NCBI GenBank assembly: GCA_963832745.1
Contig: CAWHVC010000005.1
Span: 128,001 to 192,000, forward strand
DNA: 64,000 nucleotides
Reading direction: 5' to 3'
DNA from: Candidatus Bathyarchaeota archaeon
Lineage (GTDB): Archaea > Thermoproteota > Bathyarchaeia > Bathyarchaeales > Bathycorpusculaceae
Of this stretch, positions 26,258-41,379 are shown piece after piece. The position numbers were made by a program, and so were the translations under genes. Below the pieces are notes generated by a model that had not been told where the DNA came from, searched no databases, and saw only the letters and a list, made by a program, of their open reading frames with translations. Each line of letters opens with the position of its first letter. The first letter of the stretch is position 1.

Positions 26258-26545
26258 TTACTGTTTGTTGGTCATTTCGTTGATTTGTTGTTCCATTGCG
26301 TGACCGCGGCAGAATACTAATGCAGTGTTTATGCCTTCGACAGATTTTGCGGCTGCTTTTATGTCGGCTGCAAGTTTGAATGCGATGGGGCAGAAGGGGC
26401 TTGTAGGTACGAATTCGACGGTTACGTTGCCGGGTTCGGTTTCTTTTACGCTTTCGATCATGTGCATTTCTTCAAATGTTTGTCCTGTTTCTGGGTCAAT
26501 TACTTTTCCTACTTCTGCGCGGACTTTATCTTCAAGTTGAGTCAT
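26258..26545 (-). CDS. Fe-S cluster assembly protein (DUF59/SufT-like)
   Basis: VIDPE and PTSPFCP motifs; start moved to MTQLEDK. Confidence 0.88.
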   Translation of the reverse strand: MTQLEDKVRAEVGKVIDPETGQTFEEMHMIESVKETEPGNVTVEFVPTSPFCPIAFKLAADIKAAAKSVEGINTALVFCRGHAMEQQINEMTNKQ

Positions 26546-26638
26546 AACTGTGAAAACCTCAATAGCGTATTTGGCGGGCATAAAATATAAACTAGTGGGA
26601 TTGTTTAGTAACGCATGTATGTGTTGCGGTGAGACGCT

Positions 26639-27073
26639 TTGAAGTTTGATGAAAACTGTATTTTTTGTAAGATTGTTCAAAAAAGGGCTTCTTCAAGCAT
26701 TCTCTATGAAGATGAGGTAGTGTTGGCTTTTCTTGATATAAGACCGGTTAATGAAGGTCACACTTTAGTTATACCTAAAGAACATTACGCTGACATCTAT
26801 GACGTTCCAAGTGAACTGTTAGGTAAGGTGCATCAAGTAAGCAAAATTCTTGCTTTGGCTGTGAAAAAAGCGGTTAACGCTGACGGAATCAGCATCATTC
26901 AACAGAACGGAAAAGCTGCCGGTCAAGACATTTTTCATTTGCATGTGCATATTATTCCAAGGTACACGGAGCAAAAGATGAAAGCGTTCCATGAACTGCA
27001 GATTGTTGATGCTAAACAGCTTGAAGTGACAGCGGCAAAAATAAAGCCGTACCTCCAAGTTTCAACATACTAA
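26639..27073 (+). CDS. HIT family nucleotide hydrolase
   Basis: CIFCKI, GHTLVIPKEH, histidine triad HLHVH. Confidence 0.95.
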   Translation: MKFDENCIFCKIVQKRASSSILYEDEVVLAFLDIRPVNEGHTLVIPKEHYADIYDVPSELLGKVHQVSKILALAVKKAVNADGISIIQQNGKAAGQDIFHLHVHIIPRYTEQKMKAFHELQIVDAKQLEVTAAKIKPYLQVSTY

Positions 27074-27118
27074 TGGCGCATTTTTCAGTCAATAGCACCT
27101 CCCCCCTTAGTGTTTCTG

Positions 27119-27357
27119 GAAAAGGGCTGGTTTCTACCTACCCCCTATAGGTTTTTGCATAGATCCGTTATTTGGATCCTAATAGGTTGATATGAAAAAT
27201 AAAGCAAGCAAAGACCGCAAAAGAAAGCATTGAACAGCACAATGCAGACTGGGCAACTAGCATGGCCCATAACAGGATATTCTTCCCGCCCTAAGCAAGC
27301 AACAACCAAAACAACCCAAATAAACAATTTTATCGCTAAAAAGACCGAATAAAACAA
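27119..27357 (+). repeat. Dispersed non-coding repeat, copy A (long)
   Basis: 27136-27186 matches the reverse complement of 62511-62561 at 46/51 nt; further collinear blocks (AGCAAAGACYGCA, TAGCATRGC, ATAAAMAATTTT..CTAAAAA). Confidence 0.85.
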
Positions 27358-27381
27358 CTATTTGTTAAAAACCATTATTTT

Positions 27382-27657
27382 TTAAGGCTTTTCTGGGATT
27401 TTGGCTTGCAGAATTTTTTCAATGCCCGAAATTTTTTCGGCTACTTTTTGTCCCTGTTCTGTCAGTTTTATGAATCGCGTTGTCGGTGGCACTCGTTCTT
27501 CGCTTACCAATTCGAGCCGCAAAAGGTTGTTTAGCGCATGATAAAGAGTCCCTTTGCTTACCTTGATGGTTATGTCTGTCATTTTTACCCTCTTGTCTGG
27601 GTAAAGAAACAGCAGTAATTGCAAATTTCCCACTGCTTCCAATTCTGCTACGTTCAT
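27382..27657 (-). CDS. Small winged-HTH transcriptional regulator
   Basis: SKGTLYHALNNLLRLELV...IKLTEQGQKVA winged-helix pattern. Confidence 0.8.
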   Translation of the reverse strand: MNVAELEAVGNLQLLLFLYPDKRVKMTDITIKVSKGTLYHALNNLLRLELVSEERVPPTTRFIKLTEQGQKVAEKISGIEKILQAKIPEKP

Positions 27658-27775
27658 GGTTTGACCTTACACTTTCTAGTATCTGAAATATAGATATCTG
27701 AATTGTGGATAAAGCTTAAATCATTTTATAATTCAATATTCATAATACGAAATACGCATTACGAAATACAGGTGA

Positions 27776-28241
27776 ATGTGTTTGAAAAAAGAACAAACAA
27801 ACCCCAACCTAACCCAAAAACTACCCCCACAACTCCAAAAAGAATACCAAAAAAGCCGCAAAAACTCGCCCATTATCGAGAGCCTGAAAATTGCAGCGGC
27901 GCTAAAGCTTTGGAATGACCGAGGCTTCACCGACATAAAGTTTGACGTACCCATAGCGTATGACGGAAAAACCATGTTCATAAAAGTCCTTGCCAAACAT
28001 CAAGAGGGCACAGTGTATGGGGTTGAATGCGCCTTCAAACGTCAAACTGGGTTGGCTTAAAGAACGTCTTCCAGCACTGCAAATGTGTCTACCCAAAGAC
28101 AGCTACATCATTGCCTTATTCCCAGAGACAGCCAGCGAAAAAGCCGACAAAGCAGTTAAGTTTGCAGATGAAGTATGGGTTACTGGCAAAAACGGAAAAA
28201 TCAACCAAATGGTATTCCATTCATGCTTTGGAAAACAATAA
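27776..28241 (+). CDS. Hypothetical protein with possible degenerate PD-(D/E)XK nuclease-like fold; frameshift near 28034
   Basis: ORFs 27776-28060 and 27990-28241 join as ...GTVYGVECA/SNVKLGWL...ADEVWV. Fold assignment is inference. Confidence 0.55.
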
Positions 28242-28436
28242 AGTACCCTCTTTCACGTTTTGACACTTAACTCTAATTGATTCTAAAAATTAGAGGGTTA
28301 ACTGTTTTATCTACTTCCCCCATGGGGGATACGATTTTTAGCTTGGCGCGTGAACCTTCGAGTTAATCTGCCATAAAACGACAGAAATAGAGACCGTCTC
28401 AACAGGGTAAATCCCAGCATATGATGTTAAAAAAAA

Positions 28437-29351
28437 TTAATCTGCGATTTTCTTAGTTGCTTCTTTAGTCATTTCGACGATTGTTGGCAATTGAGTTTTG
28501 CTTTCAATTTTTTTTAGCCAAATATCATAATGCCGCAAAAATGTCATATACCGTCTGTTATTGACCCAGAAGGCTAAACACATGACAACACCAACCAAAA
28601 CACCTTCCATTATCGCTGTGAACCAATCGAGGGAATGACTAAAATAAAGTGTTAAAATCAATACAACTAAAGCAGTTAAGCCGCCTGTTAATATGGTGCT
28701 GCCTATTTTAAAATAATTTTGAAATGATTCTTTTACAGTTTCAATTTTCTTGAATTCGAATTCTGTGTTAAATGTTGGCTGTATGTTGGTTGGTGTTTGT
28801 GGAGTTGTTTGAACCATTGGAGGCTGAGGTGGCGACGGGGTTACAGAATCACTACTTTTTTCAGGTTTGGGGTTCTCTGTTACATAAGCATAGAATAAGA
28901 AAATAAACAGTAACTGGAAAATAGCTATGATAAAGGCATCTAACGCATATCCCCACGAAATAGCGAGAAAAATTCTGCCGCCTACGGCTAAGTTATAATA
29001 AGCAAAGAATAGAAGAATCATTGGAAATAAAAAAGGAAGAAAGAAGAAGCCCATCATTATTTCTTTTGCTTTTCTTCCTTGAATAAAATCTTTTAACATG
29101 ATTCCCAGAATAGCGCCACTAAAACCGACAACTATGCCAGTCAATGTTGCTATCCCATTAATTACCGTTGGCACCGTCTGAGCCTGAATTGCTATTTGGG
29201 CAGTTGCATTTGCCGCCGCATTATTTGAATCTCCACCGTTAGTGTAATCAATTCTAAATGGGGTAAAGAAAAAAGTCCATGTTAAAAGTAACAAGAGAGC
29301 GATTATCCCAAAAATCAGCACTATTGATAGGATAATATTTGCTGTTTTCAA
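28437..29351 (-). CDS. Hypothetical membrane protein with Pro/Thr-rich linker
   Basis: 304 aa; N-terminal TM block, PSPPQPP linker, C-terminal 2-TM block. Confidence 0.7.
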   Translation of the reverse strand: MKTANIILSIVLIFGIIALLLLLTWTFFFTPFRIDYTNGGDSNNAAANATAQIAIQAQTVPTVINGIATLTGIVVGFSGAILGIMLKDFIQGRKAKEIMMGFFFLPFLFPMILLFFAYYNLAVGGRIFLAISWGYALDAFIIAIFQLLFIFLFYAYVTENPKPEKSSDSVTPSPPQPPMVQTTPQTPTNIQPTFNTEFEFKKIETVKESFQNYFKIGSTILTGGLTALVVLILTLYFSHSLDWFTAIMEGVLVGVVMCLAFWVNNRRYMTFLRHYDIWLKKIESKTQLPTIVEMTKEATKKIAD

Positions 29352-29439
29352 GATTACCCCTTGCTCTTATTCCACGTTATACAAATTTAAGGCTTGTGTG
29401 CAAATAGTCCTTGCGCTAACTCCCATTACAGGGAATAGT

Positions 29440-30252
29440 TCAAGTTTTTTCACCGCTTTCTTTTGCTTCAAGATAGTACACTACTGGTTTAGCATCTAAC
29501 TCCAGCCTATTTTCAGCATCAACAATCATGCTGTTTACATTTTCAAGATATGACTTAATTTCCTCTGGCATTATTGGGACGTCAGCAAAATATCTGGCAC
29601 GCGCTCTAAAACTTGAGAGTTTGTTCAGTGTTTCACGGAAAATTGGGTCAACATTTCCGAGATTAGCAAAACTGTTGTACCGATAAGAAATGTCGCCGTG
29701 TGAAGTTCTTTTTCGAAATTTAGGGTCATGCTCAAGTAACAGGACAGCTCTTGATGAAAGTTCTGCCGCGCTAAAGAGACAATCGAGACAAGATGCAAAA
29801 TATTCTTTATTGAAAGCGAATTGTGCTAATTCATGGAATTGTTTTGCACTATTAACATGTTTTTTTGCAAGAGCCTTATTGTAGCGCAAATCAAAGGAAA
29901 TAAGCCACTTGCTAGAAATTTGGATTAGAGTTATGTGACCACAGTCGGGATCATCTTCATTGGTCAGCCTTAACTCTTTTATGCCTTCGACTTCATTTTC
30001 GTAAATTGGTTCACCTTTCTTTTTTGATATTCCGCTTTTTAATTTCATATCGACAATTGCTTTTACTTCTGAATTAAGCCTTACCTCGTTTTTTCTTTTA
30101 CCGTCAGAATAAAAAATTATTTGTGCCCGCTTTAAAACAAATGGTTCAGAAAGAGTGTTTGCTTCTTTTCGCCTTTTTATTTCTGGCTGAACAAATAATT
30201 CTAAAGTGTGATTTAGAAGATTTTCACCAAACTGTTCAGGTAATTGTTGCAT
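29440..30252 (-). CDS. HEPN-domain protein with uncharacterised N-terminal domain
   Basis: C-terminal half fits HEPN: A.FAFNKEYF..CL..LFSAAEL..RAVL, TSHG, FRARARY. Confidence 0.75.
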   Translation of the reverse strand: MQQLPEQFGENLLNHTLELFVQPEIKRRKEANTLSEPFVLKRAQIIFYSDGKRKNEVRLNSEVKAIVDMKLKSGISKKKGEPIYENEVEGIKELRLTNEDDPDCGHITLIQISSKWLISFDLRYNKALAKKHVNSAKQFHELAQFAFNKEYFASCLDCLFSAAELSSRAVLLLEHDPKFRKRTSHGDISYRYNSFANLGNVDPIFRETLNKLSSFRARARYFADVPIMPEEIKSYLENVNSMIVDAENRLELDAKPVVYYLEAKESGEKT

Positions 30253-30511
30253 AGAGGTACTTAGCCTTTGTGAATTTATAAAATTTTATTGATGCTACAA
30301 GGAGGAAAAAGTTAACTTACTCAACCCTCTTTTGCCGTTGTGAACTCTTTAATTGATTAGGGAAAAGTGTGTTTGTCTCTGTACTTGACTATCTAGCGCT
30401 AAACTAACAAACATTGGTATTTGGTTGTGATAAGTGATATCCTAAGTTTTTGTTGCCTTAGTCCTTTCAACAGGTTTTCTCTAACATACCTTGTTGGTAT
30501 TTACTCAGAGC

Positions 30512-30568
30512 AGGTTTCTGCTTAGAATTTCTAAGAATACCCTTATAGGCGCTAAATATGTTGGCTAA
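30512..30568 (+). repeat. Dispersed non-coding repeat, copy B (core, degenerate)
   Basis: AGGTTTCTGC..TA...ATAGG with the same 38-nt spacing as other copies; 30541-30568 matches the tail of copy D at 23/28. Confidence 0.65.
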
Positions 30569-30606
30569 AAGTTAGTGGAATAAAAGATAAAGTTGGGAAA
30601 AGTGGT

Positions 30607-30660
30607 TTATGGGTAGAATCGTCTTGTGGTTCTTGGGAAGGGTATTGCGTCGATGATGTT
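30607..30660 (-). pseudogene. asnS: Orphan duplicate of the asnS 3' end (NIIDAIPFPRTTRRFYP*)
   Basis: Same translation as 31581-31634; 13 of 54 nt differ and all differences are synonymous. Confidence 0.95.
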
Positions 30661-30749
30661 GTATGGGAAGCCTGCTTTTTCTTGCCATTCGAGTTAAAAT
30701 TTGGGTTTCAAGTAATTTATATATAGTCAAGTTGGGGCTAAGTTTTGTT

Positions 30750-31544
30750 ATGGATAGATTGGGTAAAAGTCTCGCGTTATGTTTAGTTTTACTTTTGGCT
30801 GTTTCTGTTTTGTTTTCTGTTGTTGTGCCTGCTTCGGCGCAAACGGTGCCTCAGCCTTCTGTTCCGGAATTCACGTTGAAGTATGTTAGTTCTTCATATA
30901 CAGTTACAACTACTAACCCCTATACGGGAGTAACAGAAAAGGAACTAGTTAGCAATGACTCAATTGTAATTACAATAACTAACCAACCATTTCCTTATTC
31001 AGAATATCAACTATACTATAATGTTCGTACGAAACCTCATTTTGAAGGCGATTGGTATGAAATTTATCCCCTTGCAAATTTGACCAGTTCATATAAAGGC
31101 GGTTACGATTTTACCTATGCCCAGTACATATGGCGTGGTGTGCCACAATCTGACTCAAGTTATACCACTATAGCTTTTTTGGTTGAACCAACAAACCTAT
31201 ACCAAGGTTCTGGTTATGACGTTGATGGTATTTTTGGGTACCTTGGAATTCCTTATGGCAGTCAACTTGATTTTCAAGTAGAGGCTCAAGTTGGGCATCC
31301 TTTGGGCATTTGGGTTGGTGACCATCCTTTGTATCCTATGGCTGGTGGACACCTGGAGCCCGGTATCGCTTATGATTTGTCAAGCGGATGGAGTAACACA
31401 AAAACAACCTCGATAGGTGAATCCTCAGGTTCAGCGTTGCCTTCACCCTCAGTTCCAGAATTTCCAGCAATGATAATCTTGCCCTTGTTTATTGCAGTAC
31501 CCGTAATAACAGCGATAATTTACCGAAAAAAAACAGTTCACTAA
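30750..31544 (+). CDS. Exported surface protein with PEF-CTERM-type sorting signal
   Basis: Signal peptide from MDRLG (30750); C-terminal VPEFP, TM helix and RKK. Confidence 0.85.
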   Translation: MDRLGKSLALCLVLLLAVSVLFSVVVPASAQTVPQPSVPEFTLKYVSSSYTVTTTNPYTGVTEKELVSNDSIVITITNQPFPYSEYQLYYNVRTKPHFEGDWYEIYPLANLTSSYKGGYDFTYAQYIWRGVPQSDSSYTTIAFLVEPTNLYQGSGYDVDGIFGYLGIPYGSQLDFQVEAQVGHPLGIWVGDHPLYPMAGGHLEPGIAYDLSSGWSNTKTTSIGESSGSALPSPSVPEFPAMIILPLFIAVPVITAIIYRKKTVH

Positions 31545-31580
31545 CATAAAATAAAAAATAGTTTGAGGCAGAAAAAGTGC

Positions 31581-32864
31581 CTATGGATAGAACCGACGGG
31601 TGGTTCTTGGAAACGGAATCGCATCAATAATGTTATCCAAATCCAGCATCCAAACAATAAGCCGTTCTACTCCCATGCCAAAGCCGACGTGTGGAACTGT
31701 GCCGTATCTGCGTAGGTCGAGGTACCATTCGTAGTCTTCTGGGTTTAAGCCTTGAGCCTTCATGCGGCTAATTAGGATGTCTTTGTTGTCTTCTCTTGCG
31801 CCGCCTGTGCTGATTTCGCCGATGCGCGGGACCATCATGTCTACGCTCATGGCGATTTCTGGGTGGTCTTTGTAGGTTTTGCAGTAGAAGGCTTTGATTT
31901 CTGTTGGGTAATCGTATACGAAGAATGGTTTGCCGAATTCGTCTGCGAGGACTTTTTCGTCTTCATAGCCAAGGTCGCTGCCCCAGTCAAGTGCGGGGTT
32001 TTTGGGTTTTAAGCGTTCGATGGCTTCTTTGTAGGTAATTCTTGGAAAAGGCACCTTGACCTCTTTCAGCTTGTTAATGTCTGCGCCAAGTTCAGCAAAT
32101 TCTTTCTCGCAACTGTTTCCGATGCTTTGGCAAATGTGCTCCATTAAGCCCTCCTCAAACTTCATAAGGTCAGTCATGTCCGCAAAAGGCCATTCACCCT
32201 CCATGTGCCAGTACTCCGTTAAGTGGCGGATTGTACGGCTTTTCTCAGCACGAAAACTCGGGGCGATACAGAACACTTTTTCAAGCCCAAACATCAAAAT
32301 TTCAAGATACAATTGGCTACTCTGAGTCAAGTAAAGTTGCTGATCAAAATATTTCAAGCCAAACAATGTAGAGCCACCTTCAACCGCTGCACTGATGAAC
32401 ATTGGCGGAGAAACTTCAGTGTAATCTTGCATTTTGAAGTATTCACGGGCAGCTTCGAAAACTTTGCTACGCACTCTCATAACAAGATTCATTTTTCGGC
32501 TACGTAGCCAAAGGTGACGCATGTCACGAATGAATTCTTCACTTTTATCTTTACCAATTGGAAAGATTTCAGCTAAACCGATTATCTGGATGTTTTCTAC
32601 GCTGATTTCGTATCCGCCGGGTGCACGGTCATCTTTTCGTGCAGTGCCTTCAAGGGACAAGCTGGATTCGATAGTTAATTGTTGTGCGGCGCTCCATGCG
32701 GGGCTGTCCTTTTTTACGGTACATTGGACAACACCGGTGGAGTCACGTAAAACTATGAATATGAGTGATTTTCCTTCTCGTTTACGGTAGACCCAGCCGC
32801 GGATTTCTGTTTTTTGGTCTGGGCAGCAGCCGTCTAAGACTTCGCGTATCTTCTTAAGAGCCAT
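31581..32864 (-). CDS. asnS: Asparagine--tRNA ligase
   Basis: OB-fold, YLTQSSQLYLE, FRAEKSRT.RHLTEYW, RRYGTVPH.GFGMGVER. Confidence 0.95.
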   Translation of the reverse strand: MALKKIREVLDGCCPDQKTEIRGWVYRKREGKSLIFIVLRDSTGVVQCTVKKDSPAWSAAQQLTIESSLSLEGTARKDDRAPGGYEISVENIQIIGLAEIFPIGKDKSEEFIRDMRHLWLRSRKMNLVMRVRSKVFEAAREYFKMQDYTEVSPPMFISAAVEGGSTLFGLKYFDQQLYLTQSSQLYLEILMFGLEKVFCIAPSFRAEKSRTIRHLTEYWHMEGEWPFADMTDLMKFEEGLMEHICQSIGNSCEKEFAELGADINKLKEVKVPFPRITYKEAIERLKPKNPALDWGSDLGYEDEKVLADEFGKPFFVYDYPTEIKAFYCKTYKDHPEIAMSVDMMVPRIGEISTGGAREDNKDILISRMKAQGLNPEDYEWYLDLRRYGTVPHVGFGMGVERLIVWMLDLDNIIDAIPFPRTTRRFYP

Positions 32865-32987
32865 GGTAATCAACCGTTTCCTCTAATTTATTGACATGTA
32901 TCCTAAATGCCTATCGCACAACGGATAATTTAAAACTGACTGAAAAACACAAAAAAAAGAAAAAGGAAGAGTTTAAAGTTTAATTTT

Positions 32988-35582
32988 TTATGGGCGTTTT
33001 CTAAGCAGCAACGCGGTTGCTATTACAACAACGATTATTACGGCTAAACCAGTTCCAAGCGTGTACAATTCGTATGGTGGATTAGCTACTTGTGAAGGCG
33101 TCACGGTTCCTGTCGACTGCGGAGCTGCACCTACTGCAATATCTGTGGCTGCCGATGAACTGCCATAAGAGTCGTCAGCGGCAAAACTGGCAATGATTGT
33201 CCATGTTCCCTCCTTGTCAGGAGTCCAAGCGTAACTAAAAGTACCATAATACCCGTTGGTCGTAACGGTGCCTATTGTTTGCGCGTTGCCATTAGGATCA
33301 ATAGCTGTCAAAGTAACAGGTACACCCGCAATTGTTTCAGTGCCTGTAATACCGTTTTGAGGCTGCTGTCTATGCAAATAATTCATCTGTGTACCCATCG
33401 AGTCTTTGCTAACACACGGAGTTCCCTGCTGAGCCGGTGATTGGTCAAGAACCGTACCCTCGATCAAAATTTGGCTGCCACTGGATGGCGTCTTTGACGA
33501 TGCAGTAACAGTTGTCGCTGATAAACCCCGTCCAATGATGTATTGATAGCCGTCTGCGCCGCCAACTGAAAGATACCCGTCCGAAACTGCCAAATCTGCC
33601 CCAGTGAACCATGAGGAGCCTGGAATCATGACATCCCAGACTTTTGAACCGTCAGTGATGTTGATGGCATAAAGCTTCCAGCCTCTAGTGTATGGCGTGT
33701 TTGGCGTGTGCTCAGAGTTGTAAACAAACATTTTGCCGTCTGCAATGATTGCGGGCGCGTCAAATGGGTAGACTGTGGTACCGTTTTCAGTGGTGTAGCT
33801 GCCTTCATAGGGGAATGCTGCGGGAGACTCAAACTTCCAAACGATTTTTCCTGTACCCCAATCGAAAGCGTAGACGCCACTGTAGGCTTCTCTAAATAGC
33901 ATACCATAGGCTGATTGTACACCGTAAGTGCCGAATCCTGAGGAGTCCCAGGGATAATCCATTTTTTGTCCAGTCCAAGCCAAGTTTCCTGTAGCCAAAT
34001 CCAAAGCAACATAGTAACCGTTAGCTGAAAGAACCGCTATTTTACCGTGGTCGGCAATGTTTGAGCTTCCGCTGTACTGTGGTTCATCAATTGTCTTGTT
34101 GAATGTGACTGACCCAGTTAACAGGTTATAGCCGATTACTCGCATTTTCGTGTATGAACCTGTGCCGTCCGATACGTCAGAAATTGCTGCGCCATAACCA
34201 GTGGAGTAATCAATTACGCTTGGCAGAGAACTCATTGCATAAGATGTGTTAGATACGATTCTTGAAGCTAAGTTGCCTGTTCCAAGTGTTGTCCAGTTAA
34301 TTAGTCGGTACCTGTTAGCACCAGCGCTGACGCCTAAGTCTTGCACTGTTAAGCAGTAACCGTTCATGTAATAGGTGCCAGTTGTTAATGGCGAAATTGA
34401 AATGTTGCTTGACATTACACCGTTTAGGGGATTGTACTTTCTTAGATAACCACCGCTTATAGAAAGCAAAGTTGGTTGACCTGGGGTGATATCTGCACCG
34501 ACGACACCTGAACCAGAATAGGAAACTGTGCCGTATTCAATCAGGTTCGGAGCTGACTCACCTGCATATAAAGGTCGTTCCCAGAAAACTTCGCCAGTTC
34601 TGATGTCATAACATTGCCAGTATGTTTGGGCTGCTGCTGATGTTTCGCTGACACGTGAAATTGTTTGGTAGCCTCTGCCGAACAGGATGATGCTGGGTTT
34701 TCCGCCATAACCGCTTAGTTCGTAACCTAATGAGCCTATGCCTGCGTCGCCGCCTACTATGCCTTCAAAGGATAGCATACGTTTCCAGACTACGTGTGCA
34801 CTGTTTGGTCCTTGTACCCAGGGGGTGAATTGTGACCTTGGATTGTAAACTGATGTTGTGTCGGGGTAATACATTTGCCATGCTTCTTCGGGTATACCGC
34901 TTGGTCCAAACCATGGGTAATTGCCAAGGATAGACCACCATTCACGGTTTTCAAAGGCCACTGGTCTTGTCCAGTAATCGGTGGGCAACGGGATTGCAGG
35001 CCATGAAGCAACCATGTCGTTTTGCACTGTTAATGTTTGATTATGTGTTGTGTCTGGTTTGTAGTATACTGCTTGGTAGTTTGAGGGTGCAGACATGCCT
35101 GTTGCAGATTGGTCAGTAAAGTTGGGGTCTACAATGTTACCTCGGAAGTATCTCCCTGCAGGGAAGTATGTTCCAGGGAATTCAAATTGAAGTGTCCATG
35201 TACCGTTTACGTCTGGGGTGAATTCGAACCATTGTGTACCGTCAGCTACAAAGGAGGGCTTTTCTATGGTGATTACTGAACCGTTGGGCGGCGTTATTCT
35301 TATAATGTATTCTGGATGGTTTCTGTTTGCGCCGGGAGCTGGGCTGGTCCAATAGTTTACCAGCACACTTTGTCCGACACCCACAGGGTTTGGTCTAAAA
35401 CTTAGGTGAGCTGAAACAGTGGTTTCGTTTACTGAGACGCCTTCGGCTAAGGGACCTGCAGTGGGTACTGTCGGGGCAGCAGCGTTGGCGGGAGCATTTG
35501 TTAGTAGCGCAACTGATGCAATTAACAGAACAATCACAAAAATTGTTGACATTTTCGAATTATTTTGTTTTGAAATTTTCAA
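32988..35582 (-). CDS. Surface protein with PQQ-like beta-propeller repeats, paralog 1
   Basis: Signal peptide, repeated xxDxxTGxxxW units, Ig-like flanks, C-terminal TM helix and RKRP. Confidence 0.88.
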   Translation of the reverse strand: MKISKQNNSKMSTIFVIVLLIASVALLTNAPANAAAPTVPTAGPLAEGVSVNETTVSAHLSFRPNPVGVGQSVLVNYWTSPAPGANRNHPEYIIRITPPNGSVITIEKPSFVADGTQWFEFTPDVNGTWTLQFEFPGTYFPAGRYFRGNIVDPNFTDQSATGMSAPSNYQAVYYKPDTTHNQTLTVQNDMVASWPAIPLPTDYWTRPVAFENREWWSILGNYPWFGPSGIPEEAWQMYYPDTTSVYNPRSQFTPWVQGPNSAHVVWKRMLSFEGIVGGDAGIGSLGYELSGYGGKPSIILFGRGYQTISRVSETSAAAQTYWQCYDIRTGEVFWERPLYAGESAPNLIEYGTVSYSGSGVVGADITPGQPTLLSISGGYLRKYNPLNGVMSSNISISPLTTGTYYMNGYCLTVQDLGVSAGANRYRLINWTTLGTGNLASRIVSNTSYAMSSLPSVIDYSTGYGAAISDVSDGTGSYTKMRVIGYNLLTGSVTFNKTIDEPQYSGSSNIADHGKIAVLSANGYYVALDLATGNLAWTGQKMDYPWDSSGFGTYGVQSAYGMLFREAYSGVYAFDWGTGKIVWKFESPAAFPYEGSYTTENGTTVYPFDAPAIIADGKMFVYNSEHTPNTPYTRGWKLYAINITDGSKVWDVMIPGSSWFTGADLAVSDGYLSVGGADGYQYIIGRGLSATTVTASSKTPSSGSQILIEGTVLDQSPAQQGTPCVSKDSMGTQMNYLHRQQPQNGITGTETIAGVPVTLTAIDPNGNAQTIGTVTTNGYYGTFSYAWTPDKEGTWTIIASFAADDSYGSSSAATDIAVGAAPQSTGTVTPSQVANPPYELYTLGTGLAVIIVVVIATALLLRKRP

Positions 35583-35795
35583 TTTTTTACCTCTTAAAGT
35601 TTATAAAATAGTCGTTACCAAGCATCAACTATATAAAATCTTGTTGTAATAGCCCACTACAACCCATATTTGGTAAGAAAAGCGTTTAAAATAAATAAAA
35701 AATTTTGATTTATCCAGTAAATAAATCAAAAATTAAACTGTTAACTTAAACGACTAAAAAAATAAAAAAAGAAAAGGATTTTAGATGTTTATTTT

Positions 35796-38354
35796 TTATG
35801 GGCGTTTTCTTAGGGTAAGCAATCCGACTGCAATTATGGCGATTATGATGGCAATTGTTGAGATAGCTGTGTATGTTTCAATTGGAGGCATAACGACACT
35901 AGATGTTTGTGTTGTTGGTTCTGTTGTTGCATCAACAACGCTCACGTATGTTTGTGACCAACTACTGCCATAGGATGCATCGCCTGCAAAAGTTGCCATG
36001 ATTGTATATTGACCTGCCATTGGTGGTTCCCAAGAGTAGCCATATGTACCGCTCATGTCGCTTGTTACATCTGCAACGTGCACATAGTTACCGTTCGGGT
36101 CAACAGCGTCAATTGATACAGGAACACCGATTACGTCAGCGGGGATTGGCTGCTGCATGTGCAAATAATCCATCCATGCGCTCATGCTTTGCGGAGAAAT
36201 GCATGGGGTTCCTTCTTGGGCTGGTGACATGTCGAGAACGGTTCCTTGGATTATGACTTTGTCGCCTGTTGAAACTTGGCTCATCGGTGCCTCGATGGTT
36301 GTTTGGCTTTGTCCTTTGCCGATGCCGTAGGTGTAACCGTCAAATGGGTTACCCGCGATTAAGTAACCGTCTGCTATTGCTGCTGGAGGCATAGACCCAG
36401 TTAGGTTCCAGATACCTTCACCAGTGGTTACGTTGATGCAATGTAAGCCCCACCCTCTTGTTACTGGCCAGCTTTCAGTGTGCTCGTAAGTGTAGGTGTA
36501 GAATTTGCCGTCTGCAATCCATCCGCCTACACCGAAGGAGTAGAACGGATAAACTGTGGTGCCGTTTTCGCCTGTGTATGGTGTTTCGAACGGGTTGGCA
36601 GGTGCTTCGTACTTCCAGACTTGTTTGCCTGTATCCCAGTCGAAAGCGTAGATGCCGTCTTGTGCTTCCCTAATTATCATGCCGTAAGCTGATAATGCAG
36701 TGTAAGCTCCGAAGCCTGAGGATGACCAGGGGTAATCCATTTTATCGCTTGTCCAGAGTTGTTCGCCGGTTCTTAAATCGAAGCAGACGTAGTAGCCGTT
36801 GGCTGAGAGCGTGGCTAGTTTGCCGTGGTCAACAAGGTCACATAGCATGCTGTACATTGGTTCGCTGATGTTTTTGGTCCATAACTGTTGTCCAGTTATT
36901 AGGTCATAACCGCGTAGTGTTTCGCCCACGTATGCATCAGCAACTGAAATGCCGCTAACGCTTCCGCCTAAACCTGTGGTATAATCAATTAGGCTTGGCA
37001 AAGCACTCATTGCGTAGGTTGTGTTGCTCTTTATTCTGCTTGCAAAGCTGGTTGATGTTCCTCGTGTTGTCCAGTTGATAAGACGGTATTCAGTTACGCC
37101 GTCGTGTCTTAGTGTTTGTACGCTATAGACTAATGGGTCTGTGTCTCGGGTGTAAGAATTCTGGTAGTATGTTCCTGATGAAACATTGTCGCTTGCTGGT
37201 GCTAAGCTAACGTTGCAGTTCATTACACCTGTCCATGGGTCCCACTTGTAAAGCCGGTTTGCGTCAAAGTAAATCAAGCTAACTGTCCATGCGCCTGCTG
37301 CTTCTGCACCTGCAACTTCTGATTGTGTAGGGCTGGCATATTCAATTATGTTGGGCACTAATGATGTTGTCGTTAGGAAGAAACCGTACCTTAATGTAGT
37401 TGTTGTTTGTACGGGTTTTTCCCAGAAGACTTCTCCGGTTCGAAGATCATAGCAGCGCCAGTATGTTTGGTCAGTTCCCGGTTTAGCGTAGGAGTCATAT
37501 GCTCTTCCTGCATAAACGATTGATGGCGTTGGTGGCGAGTTAGAGTAGCCATATTGTCCTGTTTGTCCACCGATTATTCCTGCTATTGAGCCTTGTCGTT
37601 TCCATACTATGTGTGCTGTTTCTGGTGCTTCAACCCACGGGATGAATTTGCCGCGTGCGTTGTATTGTGTGCTTGTGTCTGGATACATTTGGTCCCATAT
37701 TGGACCGCCGCCGACATAGCCTGTTGGTGGGAAGTTTCCAAGAATGGTCCACCATTCTCTGTTTTCTACGTGTGCTGGTCTTGTCCAATAATCCGTTGGA
37801 AGTGCTGACGACCAAGAAGCAATCATGTCTTCCTGGACGGTAACGTTCACTACTGGAGAACTTGATGGCTTATAGTATGCTGAAGCTACCGGCACTGGGC
37901 CAGATGTCATGAATCCACCGGTTAAGTTTGCTGCTGGGAAGAAGGTGCCTAGGAATTCAAATTGGAATTGGTATACACCGACTTGGTCTGGAATGTACTC
38001 AAAATATGCTGTTGCATCTGCAGGATAAGACGATTTTGTTACTGTTTCGGTTGTTCCATCTGGTTTTGTGATTGTTACAACGTAAGCTTGTTCATGGTGT
38101 CTGGCTGCGTGCATGGCTGGAGAAGTCCACAAGTTAACCAGAAGTGTTTGTCCTTTTCCTATCAGGTTTGGTCTGACGCTTAAGTGTGCGGATGTGTCAA
38201 GTTGAATGCTAGGGTTTGCTCCGTCAGGCAATGGCCCTGTTACTTGGGTTGTAACGTCTGCTTGTGCTGGCTGTCCAAGTATTACAACCATTGAAGCAAT
38301 CAATATTACGATAATTGCTGTTGCCGATTGTTTTGTTTTTGTTAATTTTTTCAT
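35796..38354 (-). CDS. Surface protein with PQQ-like beta-propeller repeats, paralog 2
   Basis: Same architecture; shared LPTDYWTRP and DHGK motifs. Confidence 0.88.
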   Translation of the reverse strand: MKKLTKTKQSATAIIVILIASMVVILGQPAQADVTTQVTGPLPDGANPSIQLDTSAHLSVRPNLIGKGQTLLVNLWTSPAMHAARHHEQAYVVTITKPDGTTETVTKSSYPADATAYFEYIPDQVGVYQFQFEFLGTFFPAANLTGGFMTSGPVPVASAYYKPSSSPVVNVTVQEDMIASWSSALPTDYWTRPAHVENREWWTILGNFPPTGYVGGGPIWDQMYPDTSTQYNARGKFIPWVEAPETAHIVWKRQGSIAGIIGGQTGQYGYSNSPPTPSIVYAGRAYDSYAKPGTDQTYWRCYDLRTGEVFWEKPVQTTTTLRYGFFLTTTSLVPNIIEYASPTQSEVAGAEAAGAWTVSLIYFDANRLYKWDPWTGVMNCNVSLAPASDNVSSGTYYQNSYTRDTDPLVYSVQTLRHDGVTEYRLINWTTRGTSTSFASRIKSNTTYAMSALPSLIDYTTGLGGSVSGISVADAYVGETLRGYDLITGQQLWTKNISEPMYSMLCDLVDHGKLATLSANGYYVCFDLRTGEQLWTSDKMDYPWSSSGFGAYTALSAYGMIIREAQDGIYAFDWDTGKQVWKYEAPANPFETPYTGENGTTVYPFYSFGVGGWIADGKFYTYTYEHTESWPVTRGWGLHCINVTTGEGIWNLTGSMPPAAIADGYLIAGNPFDGYTYGIGKGQSQTTIEAPMSQVSTGDKVIIQGTVLDMSPAQEGTPCISPQSMSAWMDYLHMQQPIPADVIGVPVSIDAVDPNGNYVHVADVTSDMSGTYGYSWEPPMAGQYTIMATFAGDASYGSSWSQTYVSVVDATTEPTTQTSSVVMPPIETYTAISTIAIIIAIIAVGLLTLRKRP

Positions 38355-38760
38355 ATTTTCTCTCCTTAATGATTTACTTCATTCGTTTTTTCAAACACTT
38401 AAGATTTGGTAAGTTAAAGCATAACTTACAACAATTCTAAATCAATATAAGGTAAAATTTTAAAAAAATAAAGTAAAATTAGTATAAAAAAAACAGTCCT
38501 AAAAAAAAGAAACACAAAAAATAATTTGAAAAAATTAAACTTTAAAACACAAAAAATTCAAAACATATTTTTTAAAAAATGTTGCCGGATGTAAAATCAC
38601 ATGTGCGCTAACAAAAAGACATCAACCAAAAATACATTGGCAATAAGAAGCATATCCAAATATCAGATAACTTAAAATCATCATAACAACGCTCAGGCAT
38701 ATTCATTGAGAAAAAATTAAAACTGAATGTCAAAAACAAAAAAAGAAAAAAAGGATTTAT

Positions 38761-41379
38761 TTAGGCTTTTTTCCGCATTAAAAGCAAGCCAACAGCTGCT
38801 ACTGCAATAATTACAGCGATGCCTGTTCCAACAGTGTAAAGTTCGTATGGCGGATTTGTACTTTCTGTGTTTGTTGACGGTTCAGGTGTTGTTGGTGTAT
38901 CTACTATTGTGGCGTAGGTTTGAGCGTATGAACTGCCGTAGGAGTCACTGCCCATGAAGGTTGCTGTGATAATGTATTGACCTGCATTTGACGGAGTCCA
39001 TTCAAAACCGTATGTTCCGCTCATGTCGCTGGTTGCATCGCCAAGATGCACATAGTTTCCGTTGGGGTCAGTAGCGTCAATAGAAACTGGAACTCCGGTT
39101 ACGTTGGCGGGTATAGATAATCCTTTGTGAATGTGCGCCATCCATTCGCCCATTGATTCGTCAGAGACACAGGCAGTTCCTGGTTGACCGGGTGATTGGT
39201 CAAGAACAGTGCCTGTAATCATTGCTTTTTGGCCCACAATTATTTGGGTCATTGGTGCCACTACGGTTGTTTCGCTTAAGCCTTTACCGAAAGCGTATGT
39301 GTAGCCGTCACTGCTCATTTCAAAGAGGTACCCGTCAGCAATTGGACCGATACTGGTTGTATGTTTAGACATTGCACCTGTAATCATAGTACTCCAGATT
39401 TCTTCGCCTGAAGTTGCGTTAATGCAGAAAGTCTTCCAACCTCTAGTAATGGGCACTGTAGCTGAGTGTTCAACTGTGTAGGTGTATAGTTTTCCGTCTG
39501 CGATTCTTGCGCCGATGTTCCATGAGTAAACGGTTGTTCCGTTTTCGTCAATGTAGGGCGTTTCATAGGGGTTTTCTGCGGGTGCTTCAAATTTCCACGC
39601 GATTGTTCCGTCTTCCCAGTTAAAAGCGTAAATGCCACTGTATGCTTGTCTGTAGAGTAAGCCATATGCTGTTTGTACATCATAAGCTCCGAAACCGGCG
39701 TCGTCCCATGGATAATCAAATCTTTCGCTCTTCCATACTTCAGCGCCAGTTCTACTGTTTAATGCCAAGAAGTAGCCTTGTTCGGTCAGAATTGCAAATT
39801 TACCGTGGTCAGCAACAATGCAGCTTGCACTGTATGCTGTTTCGCCTTCTCGTGTTACGTTCCAGAGGATTGCCCCCGTAGTTATGTCTATGCCATATGC
39901 GTTCATTGCTACGTAGATGCCGCCTCTAGAAATTGTTGCTGCTGTCGCGGCTACACCTGCTTCAAAGTCAATGCATGTTGGAATGTTGCTTATTGGCCAA
40001 CTTATGTTACTGGCGATTCTTGTGCCAGTGCTTGTTGTCAAGGTTGCTAATGTGCCAAGTGTTGTCCAGTTAATTAACCGGTATCTGCCTGCACCTGCGG
40101 CTGCACCTAAGTCTTGTACACTTAGGCAGTAACCATTCTTGTAGTAAGTACCTGTAGTTAAAGGCGCAATTGAATAGTTACCGTAAATTCCACCAGTTAT
40201 TGGATCAAATTTGATGAGTCGCGAGTTACCTATGTAATCTAAGTATACACCTGTGATGTGTGTTGGGTCACCGCCGCCGCCTGGGCTTTGTCCGATAGCG
40301 TATTCGATCACGTTTGGTTCCATTGGACCGATAGATGTGCCAAACATTGTAGTCACTGATGTTGTAGGTAGCTGAGTTTCCCAATAGACTTCTCCGGTAC
40401 GTACATCATAGCATGACCAAACATATTGGGTTACACCGTTAAGCGGTTTGGTTAAAACTTCATATGCTCTCCCTGCGACCACTACACTTGGGAAACCGTA
40501 TGAACTGATTGAGTCGGAGCCTAAACCGTTTCCTTGGAATATTTGAGTGTTTGCTTCATATCCATAGTCTCCGCCGATTAATCCGCCGAGGGCTGTTAGT
40601 CTTTTCCATGCTACGTGTGCACTGTTAGGTCCTTCAACCCATGGAATAAAGGTGTCTAAGCGACCTTTAAGCATCCATTGTGAGTTAGTGTTTGGATATA
40701 ATGCATCCCATGTCGGTCCGCCTGTTTGTCCACGCCATGGATAATTGCCAAGGATGGGCCACCATTCACGGTGTTCATATGCAACTGGACGTGTCCAATA
40801 ATCAGTTGGTAATGGGTCTTCAATCCACGAATAAACTGGGTCTTCTTGCACGGTTAATGTTTGTTCTGGTGTAGAGCTTGGCTGCATATATACTGAGTCA
40901 GCGTATACTGTACCTCCGGTGGTTGCAGTTATGACTTCGCCATTAAGGTATCGTCCTGCAGGCATGTATGTTCCGGGGAATTCCATTTTGAGCTTCCATT
41001 CTCCAACTTGATCAACTGTGTATTCTACGTAAGCGGTTCCATCAGCAGGGTACGAATTTTTCTTGATTGTTTCTGTGGTTCCGTCGGGTTTCGTTATGGT
41101 CAATGTTAGATCAAGGAACATTCTGTTTGCGCCGGGGGCTGGTGCTACCCAGAAGTTAATCAGAATTTGTTGATTAACCCCTACTGGATTAGGTCTAAAG
41201 CTTAAGGCAGCATACGATTTTGCGGTATAATTAGCTGTTACGCCACTAGGCATTGAGCCACTAAAAGGTTGTGAAGTATCAACTGCGTTTGCATTGTTTG
41301 GTGTTGAAATTAAAAGAATTGAGGCAAATAGAAGAATTGCAACAAAGGTTGTGGTTATTTTCTGGTTTAATATTTTCAT
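38761..41379 (-). CDS. Surface protein with PQQ-like beta-propeller repeats, paralog 3
   Basis: Same architecture; NPPYELYT anchor shared with paralog 1. Confidence 0.88.
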   Translation of the reverse strand: MKILNQKITTTFVAILLFASILLISTPNNANAVDTSQPFSGSMPSGVTANYTAKSYAALSFRPNPVGVNQQILINFWVAPAPGANRMFLDLTLTITKPDGTTETIKKNSYPADGTAYVEYTVDQVGEWKLKMEFPGTYMPAGRYLNGEVITATTGGTVYADSVYMQPSSTPEQTLTVQEDPVYSWIEDPLPTDYWTRPVAYEHREWWPILGNYPWRGQTGGPTWDALYPNTNSQWMLKGRLDTFIPWVEGPNSAHVAWKRLTALGGLIGGDYGYEANTQIFQGNGLGSDSISSYGFPSVVVAGRAYEVLTKPLNGVTQYVWSCYDVRTGEVYWETQLPTTSVTTMFGTSIGPMEPNVIEYAIGQSPGGGGDPTHITGVYLDYIGNSRLIKFDPITGGIYGNYSIAPLTTGTYYKNGYCLSVQDLGAAAGAGRYRLINWTTLGTLATLTTSTGTRIASNISWPISNIPTCIDFEAGVAATAATISRGGIYVAMNAYGIDITTGAILWNVTREGETAYSASCIVADHGKFAILTEQGYFLALNSRTGAEVWKSERFDYPWDDAGFGAYDVQTAYGLLYRQAYSGIYAFNWEDGTIAWKFEAPAENPYETPYIDENGTTVYSWNIGARIADGKLYTYTVEHSATVPITRGWKTFCINATSGEEIWSTMITGAMSKHTTSIGPIADGYLFEMSSDGYTYAFGKGLSETTVVAPMTQIIVGQKAMITGTVLDQSPGQPGTACVSDESMGEWMAHIHKGLSIPANVTGVPVSIDATDPNGNYVHLGDATSDMSGTYGFEWTPSNAGQYIITATFMGSDSYGSSYAQTYATIVDTPTTPEPSTNTESTNPPYELYTVGTGIAVIIAVAAVGLLLMRKKA

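Follow-up and report, generated by a model that had tools for sequence, protein, structure and literature searches.

The window analyzed here, a stretch of 64,000 nucleotides (nt) from a Candidatus Bathyarchaeota archaeon (assembly GCA_963832745.1, contig CAWHVC010000005.1, positions 128,001 to 192,000), contains asnS, the gene for asparagine--tRNA ligase, with its 3' end present twice. One copy is the working end of the intact gene; the other, an orphan encoding the same last residues, lies beyond an insert that holds a single gene. The stop-proximal half of the working end is of a type foreign to the subclade, and the corresponding half of the orphan is the native one. We favor, with a probability of about 0.5, an integrase-free displacement of the 3' end, in which host recombination would have placed a foreign segment in the end of asnS. 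Throughout, G000 denotes the genome of this window, and G008, G014, G056, G068, G069, G070, G080, G085, and G096 denote relatives from the same genus; positions are those of the window, and the features are collected in Table 1.

A duplicated asnS end with only synonymous differences

The asnS gene scores above the curated equivalog cut-offs of NF003037 (460 bits; cut-off, 414) and TIGR00457 (416.5 bits; cut-off, 342.6), and Pfam recognizes a tRNA-synt_2 domain together with the OB anticodon domain. Its same-genus orthologues are 81-92% identical in amino acids (aa). An earlier reading of the letters alone, hereafter the original prediction, had stated that the last codons of the gene recur downstream with 13 of 54 nt changed and every change silent, and translation and simulation bear this out. 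Twelve of the differences fall in sense codons (11 third positions and the first position of an AGA/CGT pair), and the remaining one is in the stop codon (TAA versus TAG). In simulations of 12 random substitutions across the 51 sense nt, the peptide was kept in 0 of 2,000,000 trials, and an analytic estimate, the single-substitution synonymous fraction (37/153) raised to the 12th power, is 4e-8. The all-silent differences indicate that the two copies diverged as working asnS ends, in separate lineages. Upstream of the orphan no reading frame runs on; the translation there is ...*LEWQEKAGFPY before NIIDAIPFPRTTRRFYP.

The insert thus lies between direct repeats, of which one serves as the working 3' end of asnS, the anatomy of a target-restoring insertion. 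The similar downstream flanks described in the original prediction are also present: on the forward strand, GGGAAAAGTGG stands before position 30607 and CAGAAAAAGTGC before position 31581. In a three-way alignment, both flanks resemble the asnS flank of G008, that of the orphan over 83-125 nt and that of the working copy over ~35 nt. A further argument had been drawn from codon endings, and it survives in part. All 18 codons of the orphan end in A or C, and T/G-ending codons make up 21 of 28 at the end of asnS versus 134 of 393 in the rest of the gene (Fisher p = 2.6e-5, for a tract chosen post hoc), with 5-20% T/G in the ~100 codons preceding the tract. A mid-gene window of 28 codons is, however, equally T/G-rich (21/28), so the contrast at the asnS end is local without being unique and makes a weak argument.

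The insert and its single cargo gene

The DNA between the repeat copies amounts to 920 bp, made up of a 36-nt spacer, the cargo gene, and 89 nt upstream of the cargo gene. The cargo is the insert's sole gene-like open reading frame (ORF) of at least 60 aa, and to this extent the original prediction, which described a PEF-CTERM surface protein as the only cargo, was correct. The label itself is weak: a motif, ...SVPEFPAMIILPLFIAVPVITAIIYRKK..., was seen by eye near the C terminus, but TIGR03024 (PEF-CTERM) gives 12.9 bits against a cut-off of 23 (E = 0.096, with the last 54 aa scanned alone), and the protein has no Pfam family. It belongs to a large paralogous family that has members in 108 of 120 genus genomes and 12 matches in G000. 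The G068 orthologue is 64% identical in amino acids, with a synonymous divergence (dS) of 0.61 and a ratio of nonsynonymous to synonymous divergence (dN/dS) of 0.40.

On either side of the cargo gene, the noncoding DNA has counterparts in G068. The spacer is 89% identical to that of G068, and ~35 nt of it weakly resemble the asnS downstream flanks of relatives. The DNA fold of 31545-31645 on the minus strand has a z score of -2.8, and the hairpin in the spacer is probably a terminator brought by the insert. The DNA upstream of the cargo gene is 84% identical to that of G068, with 27 nt around the TATA box invariant, and the TATA-like TTTATATATAG is the predicted cargo promoter.

Native and foreign parts of the gene end

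When asnS 3' ends and flanks were aligned across relatives, native sequence was recognized in the 3' half of the orphan and in its flank. Their orthologues are the end of asnS with its downstream flank in G008 and the orphan flank in G068 (the flank at 30524-30606 is 74% identical to that of G068). In G080, which has the closest asnS body (86.8%), the working end agrees with the orphan at 53 of 54 nt. An orphan-type 3' half, with no more than one difference, occurs in 7 of 54 other distinct asnS genes. The working 3' half reads ACC CGT CGG TTC TAT CCA TAG, and its type is rare, since even at up to 2 differences in 19 nt it is found in only 2 of the 54, those of G068 and the distant G070. Because the working type is rare and the orphan type is shared with relatives, the working stop-proximal part and the spacer came from outside; because the orphan stop-proximal part and flank match relatives, these are old chromosome. 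A foreign-type 3' half is therefore in use on asnS, and a native-type orphan with its flank has been kept downstream.

The foreign origin that had been proposed for the working end thus holds for its 3' half. The companion claim, that the orphan is the displaced native end, holds for the 3' half and flank by alignment; for the orphan as a whole, native origin and a 5' half brought by the insert both fit. The working ends of G000 and G068 differ at 5 of 54 nt, all synonymously. Natural asnS ends exist in all four combinations of halves, and 5' and 3' half-types assort independently among species whose asnS bodies are 74-87% identical, which makes the asnS end a recombination mosaic in the genus under either of the routes considered below.

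The same module in a second species and an empty site in its sister

G068, a second species, is collinear with 30524-32975 (81.2% identity over 2495 nt) and has the same layout, in which orphan, cargo, and TAG-stopped working end follow in identical order and the boundary likewise falls at N414. Public metagenome contigs bridge 30607-30770, from the orphan to the DNA upstream of the cargo (10 differences), and 31439-31706, from the cargo end to asnS (34 differences and 4 gaps). These contigs are short pieces only; no public sequencing run contains the stretch, the shares of its words found there being 0.05-0.07. Neither a circular joint nor an empty-site joint was found in the short metagenome contigs covering parts of the locus, which proves nothing about their absence. 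The locus lies deep within a 647-kb contig of G000, an assembly of five large contigs. A degenerate pattern for the intact peptide matched in 94 of 120 genus genomes, with two matches on one contig solely in G000 and three, each on its own contig, in G096.

Together, the independent G068 assembly and the bridging contigs confirm the contiguity of both joints and exclude an assembly chimera, one of the two outcomes under which the original prediction was to fail. The other, a relic of an old whole-gene duplication, is not supported, since a relaxed tblastn search for a whole-gene asnS duplicate finds residues 414-430 only, at the orphan, and the DNA upstream of the orphan is that of the putative cargo promoter. 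We regard a leftover of a whole-asnS duplication, or a chimera of two strains, as very improbable; nothing specific speaks for it, apart from the occurrence of mixed bins in the genus. Three contigs of G096 (C1, C3, and C19; loci L136-L138) carry three whole syntenic asnS loci that are 80-89% identical to each other, so this genome is a mixed bin of at least three related genomes.

G068 and G008 are close sisters (97.2% nt identity in pyrG and 94.2% in acs; bootstrap, 100), and in marker genes G000, G080, and G069 are each at ~84-88% from G008/G068 and from one another. In a three-marker tree, G000, G080, G069, and the pair of G068 and G008 form a star, with bootstraps of 40-72. G008 is without the insert, and its asnS flank is of the orphan type. 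Over its first 24 nt, the asnS end of G008 is identical to the G068 working copy, and over its last 19 nt it is identical to the G000 orphan. The empty site of G008 thus equals a recombinant of both copies in the core, as expected of an attL x attR product and expected also from a RecA-type or short-homology loop-out; the 11-nt run CCAAGAACCAC would be the crossover zone. Between G000 and G068, dS is 0.61 for the cargo and 0.72 for asnS, so the module has diverged about as much as the host gene. One old insertion with later loss in G008 is favored, without being proven. The event is old or recurrent. It is shared with another species, whose close sister lacks the insert and has an end equal to the exact recombinant.

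Two further observations concern recombination at this locus. The asnS body is only 89.6% identical between G068 and G008 (dS 0.47), despite the much closer match of pyrG and acs, and asnS itself appears to have recombined in one of the two. In metagenome contig X1, the orphan and the DNA upstream of the cargo are kept at 154 of 164 nt and different DNA begins at the orphan stop codon, which looks as if the island had been swapped there with the orphan as a homology arm.

Unexpected conservation of the orphan

The orphans of G000 and G068 differ at 2 of 54 nt. Elsewhere, the two genomes are 74% identical in the flank, 84% in the DNA upstream of the cargo, and 70% at asnS third positions. At a dS of 0.6-0.7, the expected difference in the orphan is ~43% (P = 6e-11), and at 16% divergence the observed value has P = 0.005. 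The conserved block extends from ~30595 to 30695. Given this near-invariance, an ancestral insertion needs an extra assumption, either selection on the orphan or repeated homogenization. Possible explanations are a control element of the cargo, a maintained recombination site, homogenization with the asnS ends of relatives, and two recent independent insertions. In addition, a candidate ORF at 30572-30730 reads the orphan in another frame. The proportions of synonymous (pS) and nonsynonymous (pN) differences in it are 0.244 and 0.078, and both changes in the G068 orphan (AGA to AAA) alter the asnS peptide and are Lys-synonymous in the frame of the candidate. Its start would be a TTG within the TATA box of the cargo gene, and an ATG is not conserved, which makes this ORF a weak candidate.

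Further orphaned asnS ends

A DNA search with 30560-30860 found four extra copies away from asnS. G069 has three of them (803.9 kb, 804.9 kb, and 2929.7 kb; its real asnS is at 759.5 kb), and G068 has one, on a different contig. All belong to the orphan type, with 83-98% identity over 49-63 nt, and resemble the orphan more closely than the asnS end of G069 itself does; the matches to the orphan are 53/54 for G069 2929691, 53/56 for G069 803924, and 47/49 for G068 C93. All sit at synteny breaks relative to G000, among ordinary chromosomal genes. The G000 orphan covers asnS residues 414-430, the G068 orphan residues 412-430, and the second G068 fragment (C93) residues 416-430. In G069, the fragment at 803.9 kb covers residues 395-428, that at 804.9 kb covers residues 402-428 by tblastn and has a decayed resemblance reaching upstream for another few codons, and that at 2929.7 kb covers residues 390-430 and is frameshifted. 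The fragments fall into two length classes whose 5' boundaries are almost constant: 15-19 codons in G000/G068 and ~27-41 aligned residues in G069. The distal joint has the same boundary in G000 and G068, as either one event or a fixed site would give, and a nearly fixed one among the three G069 fragments.

Two of the G069 copies, ~1 kb apart, bracket one GNAT acetyltransferase gene, in the geometry of working end, cargo, and orphan in G000. The G069 locus (L108, 7495-8991) comprises, in this order, a 118-aa small anchored surface-protein ORF, fragment A, the GNAT gene on the minus strand, and fragment B; in G000, the blocks on either side of this small array are separated by 70 kb. A toxin-antitoxin pair at the GNAT gene was considered and is unsupported; the 45-codon upstream ORF has no Pfam family.

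Within G000, the asnS pair stands alone in a genome-wide scan for exact stop-terminated peptides shared by a frame of at least 150 aa and a frame of less than 100 aa, a design that misses decayed copies. It was the sole case at K = 10 and 12, and one extra pair appeared at K = 8. That pair shares CPNQVSMF (G000 C4:117729 and C5:103422, in frames of 226 aa and 55 aa) and could represent either another orphaned end or what is left of a paralogue.

Searches for a recombinase and for mobile relatives

That the module is free of an integrase, as the original prediction held, is borne out by the content of the insert and by searches around it. The 920-bp insert encodes no recombinase, its one gene being without a family. 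Tyrosine recombinases (PF00589) have 9 matches in G000, some of them degenerate. The window has none of these, and the one closest to asnS, at a distance of ~74 kb, is degenerate. In G069, G080, G068, G008, and G085, no PF00589 match lies within ~46 kb of asnS or of asnS fragments, where contigs extend far enough. Six integrase-family proteins of G000 have no tblastn match in the asnS and fragment loci tested, and a Pfam scan of the neighbors of the fragments in G069 and G068 gave ordinary chromosomal genes and no recombinase. Having no integrase of its own, the module fails as a self-contained integrative element.

In viral contigs, a 29-mer of the orphan had 0 matches, and the C-terminal 140 aa of asnS and the cargo protein had no relatives. 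The 29-mer had three matches in metagenome contigs, all of them ordinary asnS ends, and five in genome contigs, all from Bathyarchaeia, Bathyarchaeota, or Ca. Bathycorpusculum. The predicted folding energy of the orphan is -0.3 kcal/mol (z = +0.54), so the orphan has no fold and is not attC-like; with no attC-type hairpin and no IntI nearby, the module is not an integron cassette. The window contains no tRNA gene, and no credible Rfam family was found in 26500-33500, where two matches were at chance level (E of 0.4-0.5).

Mechanism and alternatives

In the displacement that we favor, a foreign segment of ~0.97 kb would enter the asnS end by host recombination and not by an element-encoded integrase. 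The segment would bring the asnS 3' end of another lineage with its stop codon and terminator, plus a convergent PEF-CTERM-like gene with its promoter, and the old asnS end would be pushed aside as the orphan. Since the incoming copy keeps the essential asnS gene whole, the insertion would cost nothing. Two routes may be envisaged. In route (i), a homologous crossover inside asnS would be combined with an illegitimate joint at codon N414, using linear DNA from a diverged relative; the whole orphan would then be native and the whole working end foreign. In route (ii), circular DNA would enter by a single crossover in the CCAAGAACCAC run, with either host recombination or a trans-acting recombinase responsible, and each copy would be a hybrid. 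Route (i) is in line with the near-identity of the G080 asnS end to the orphan and with the T/G tract, which at ~28 codons reaches past the 17-codon repeat and so fits a homologous crossover further upstream. Route (ii) is in line with the G008 empty site, the near-fixed fragment boundaries, and the conserved orphan. Natural asnS ends also agree with route (ii). That of G056 is identical to the working copy in its 5' half and departs from the orphan at 1 position in its 3' half, the combination reconstructed as the target; G014 and G008 match this reconstructed attB too, and G070 matches the reconstructed incoming site, or attP, with 2 and 2 differences in half-wise counts. The data do not separate the two routes. 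The module would probably have been present in the common ancestor of G000 and G068 and would later have looped out in G008 via the identical core, leaving a chimeric but synonymous asnS end there. We infer the recombination route, the single origin, and the loop-out from these comparisons. Route (i) is homology-facilitated illegitimate recombination, one of the two explanations offered in the original prediction beside a minimal integrase-free element; the interpretation given there is partly supported.

Several observations weigh against this displacement. The orphan is far too conserved for an old relic, and the boundaries of the fragments are fixed where those of independent illegitimate joints should scatter. 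Natural asnS ends that match the reconstructed attB (G056, G014, and G008) and attP (G070) exist, and the G008 empty site fits site-specific excision or a never-occupied attB equally well. A single origin of the module has no support from the star-like tree, and the T/G tract is a weak argument given the equally T/G-rich tract in mid-gene. Finally, the layout expected of a donor, asnS followed by the cargo without an orphan, was found in none of 62 asnS-locus records representing 55 distinct asnS genes, and a tblastn search with the cargo protein matched only two G068 records.

Alternatively, the module may be a nonautonomous site-specific cassette, a possibility that we take seriously but consider rather unlikely. 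The last 54 nt of asnS would be an attachment site, the recombinase would be encoded elsewhere, and a 974-bp circle would be exchanged in the CCAAGAACCAC core, so that the working copy would consist of a native 5' part and a cassette 3' part and the orphan of a cassette 5' part and a native 3' part. Such a cassette would account for the presence and absence of the module in the sisters G068 and G008, with an empty site that is a core recombinant, and for an orphan nearly invariant between species and in scattered copies. The nearly fixed 5' boundaries within each length class, the second single-gene case in G069 (the GNAT gene between asnS-end copies ~1 kb apart), and the independent assortment of half-types over distant species, as repeated core exchanges would yield, point the same way. 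Archaea offer established cases of elements integrated in the 3'-distal parts of protein genes (PMC6563490), and e14 in icd has the same anatomy, including the synonymous changes after excision described in PMC13626634. However, none of the copies has an integrase within it or close by, identity in the core is limited to 11 nt, with arms 76% alike, and the noncoding ends of the cassette recur only in G068 among 29 cargo-homologue loci and 120 genomes. Viral contigs hold no match to the 29-mer, the C-terminal part of asnS, or the cargo protein; the orphan lacks the fold of an attC site; a cargo dS equal to that of the host gene suits vertical descent better than recent mobility; and the scattered fragments lie among ordinary chromosomal genes at synteny breaks, not at asnS. 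A broader proposal, which we consider doubtful, is that in this group of Bathyarchaeia the asnS 3' end serves as the recombination site of a cassette system without a recombinase of its own, with single genes (the surface-protein gene here, a GNAT gene in a relative) entering and leaving between its copies. Selection would keep the orphan for one of three roles: site of a subsequent exchange, control element for the passenger gene, or portion of a new small ORF in another frame. If true, this would explain the near-invariance of the orphan, the assortment of half-types, and the scattered fragments of fixed length. The module could also be what is left of a larger integrase-bearing virus or plasmid in the asnS 3' end, internal deletion having removed all but one of its genes. 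Such elements typically have this repeat-flanked, target-restoring anatomy, the nine tyrosine-recombinase matches, some degenerate, lie elsewhere in G000, and the adjoining variable island shows uptake of foreign DNA. Yet the same minimal content (0.92 kb) and boundaries are present in two species at a dS of ~0.6-0.7, so the shrinkage would predate their split and have left no other trace, and no integrase-bearing element is seen at asnS in the loci examined or in the five relatives scanned whole. We consider this remnant improbable.

The neighborhood of asnS

A hypervariable island, in which foreign DNA is often exchanged, has its near edge at the end of asnS. Below asnS, G000 has a HEPN-domain protein and a membrane protein, G080 has RmuC-family and HNH-like proteins, G069 has three proteins without a family, and G068 has one membrane protein; G008 has no genes there and reaches the multi-copy repeat after ~135 nt. 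Two overlapping ORFs of the island match a single 152-169-aa ORF in G080/G069; the frameshift that this implies for G000, near 28040, may reflect a pseudogene or an error in sequencing. The multi-copy repeat at the far edge has a ~50-nt core in ~50 matches and ~10 longer copies of 230-300 nt with several conserved blocks, and 27131-27384 matches no Rfam family. It also occurs ~170 nt beyond fragment B of G069 and 2.9 kb beyond the C93 fragment of G068. Directly upstream of asnS, three tandem genes on the minus strand (32988-41379) encode secreted proteins of 852-872 aa with PQQ/beta-propeller-like repeats and C-terminal transmembrane anchors, and their order and identity vary among relatives.

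Table 1. Features at the asnS end and in the adjoining island (window positions)
Feature	Position	Strand	Remarks
asnS, asparagine--tRNA ligase	31581..32873	-	430-codon frame, intact; NCBIfam, Pfam
Working last 17 codons + TAG stop (repeat copy 1)	31581..31634	-	encodes NIIDAIPFPRTTRRFYP-stop; 3' half of a type foreign to the subclade
Orphan last 17 codons + TAA stop of asnS (repeat copy 2)	30607..30660	-	encodes NIIDAIPFPRTTRRFYP-stop; no upstream frame continuation
11-nt run CCAAGAACCAC, identical in both copies	31600..31610 (working), 30626..30636 (orphan)	-	sole uninterrupted shared run
Spacer between convergent cargo and asnS stops	31545..31580	.	T-rich on asnS strand, small hairpin
Cargo gene, 264-aa secreted protein	30750..31544	+	signal peptide; C-terminal PEF, transmembrane segment, and basic tail (PEF-CTERM-like)
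Cassette DNA upstream of cargo	30661..30749	+	TATA-like TTTATATATAG at 30716-30726, 24 nt before ATG
Candidate 52-codon ORF reading the orphan in another frame	30572..30730	-	open in G000 (52 aa) and G068 (65 aa)
Native flank below old asnS stop	30524..30606	-	aligns with G008 asnS flank and G068 orphan flank
Variable island below asnS	27208..30523	.	absent from G008; 28242-30523 replaced in G080, G069, and G068
HEPN-domain protein, 270 aa	29440-30252	-	HEPN E = 2.8e-5; in island, G000-specific
Multi-pass membrane protein, 304 aa	28437-29351	-	in island, G000-specific
Frameshifted 152-aa-type ORF	27776-28241	+	two overlapping ORFs (94 and 83 aa), without known family
PadR-like winged helix-turn-helix protein	27382-27657	-	in island
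Multi-copy repeat, far edge of island	27131-27384 (core 27136-27189)	.	58 BLAST matches in G000

Relation to known systems

Arrangements of this kind are known in three forms: target-restoring insertion as in icd, integration into 3'-distal parts of archaeal protein genes, and C-terminal displacement with orphans. Like e14 and phage 21 in icd of Escherichia coli as they are described, the asnS insert lies in the 3' end of a housekeeping gene, brings a replacement end, and leaves the old C-terminal piece orphaned at its far side. Excision of e14 is reported to recombine icd with the icdC fragment, seen as parallel synonymous changes (PMC13626634), and the asnS end of G008 matches the synonymous-block pattern given there for loss of e14. 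In contrast, e14 is ~15 kb long, with its own site-specific recombination and SOS-induced excision, whereas the present module is 0.92 kb, has one surface-protein gene, no recombinase, and an 11-nt core, and is found in an archaeon.

Orphaned 3' ends in type VI secretion system (T6SS) and Rhs loci have been attributed to anchored illegitimate recombination in the account of PMC5361080. As described there for displacement in Rhs, contact-dependent inhibition (CDI), and T6SS loci, a conserved 5' part serves as anchor, a foreign 3' part arrives with a neighboring gene, and the old end is shifted aside as an orphan; the tandem fragments of G069 resemble the strings of orphans reported for those loci (PMC5361080). 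In those systems, however, the variable toxin tip is diversified and orphans keep immunity genes, whereas here both ends encode the same peptide. Since the displaced and the incoming ends encode the same peptide of an essential enzyme, the protein gains nothing, and the sole gain is the passenger gene.

The original prediction also held that archaeal elements mostly target tRNA genes, a statement that needs tempering: in the survey of Thaumarchaeota reported in PMC6563490, 14 of 68 mapped elements were integrated in 3'-distal parts of protein genes, with the frame restored by the element. Unlike the asnS insert, the elements presented there are multigene and have an integrase or casposase and short attachment (att) or target-site-duplication sites. 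No aminoacyl-tRNA ligase gene is named as a target in the main text of PMC6563490, where "tRNA synthetase" and "tRNA ligase" occur 0 times, and PMC10848311, on viruses of Bathyarchaeia, has 0 occurrences of asparagin*, asnS, or attachment/integration site. A literature search for asnS as an integration site gave only unrelated work on Mollicutes; this search was not exhaustive, and we make no claim of absence in print. The module resembles integron cassettes in being a single-gene unit of ~1 kb bounded by a repeated site, with small arrays such as fragment A, GNAT gene, and fragment B of G069. It differs from them in having no IntI-type integrase nearby and no attC-like hairpin, and in that the repeat is the end of a coding gene. 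Unusual features of the present case are an essential aminoacyl-tRNA ligase gene as the target in Bathyarchaeia, a cargo of one gene, occupied and empty sites in sister species, further orphans, and a conserved orphan.

Significance

In sum, a gene has been gained here at the end of an essential archaeal protein gene, with the latter kept and no integrase visible. The case comes from the barely cultured class Bathyarchaeia, and it includes occupied and secondarily (or primarily) empty states in sister species. A block of purely synonymous differences at the end of a gene can be the footprint of DNA insertion and loss, which matters for signals of recombination and selection in aminoacyl-tRNA ligase genes, which serve as markers. 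The conserved orphan is a concrete candidate in two respects: it may be a displaced gene end that has been exapted, or a recombination site kept at the edge of a variable island. If the proposal of a cassette system at the asnS end were true, it would suggest a new route of single-gene mobility in archaea.

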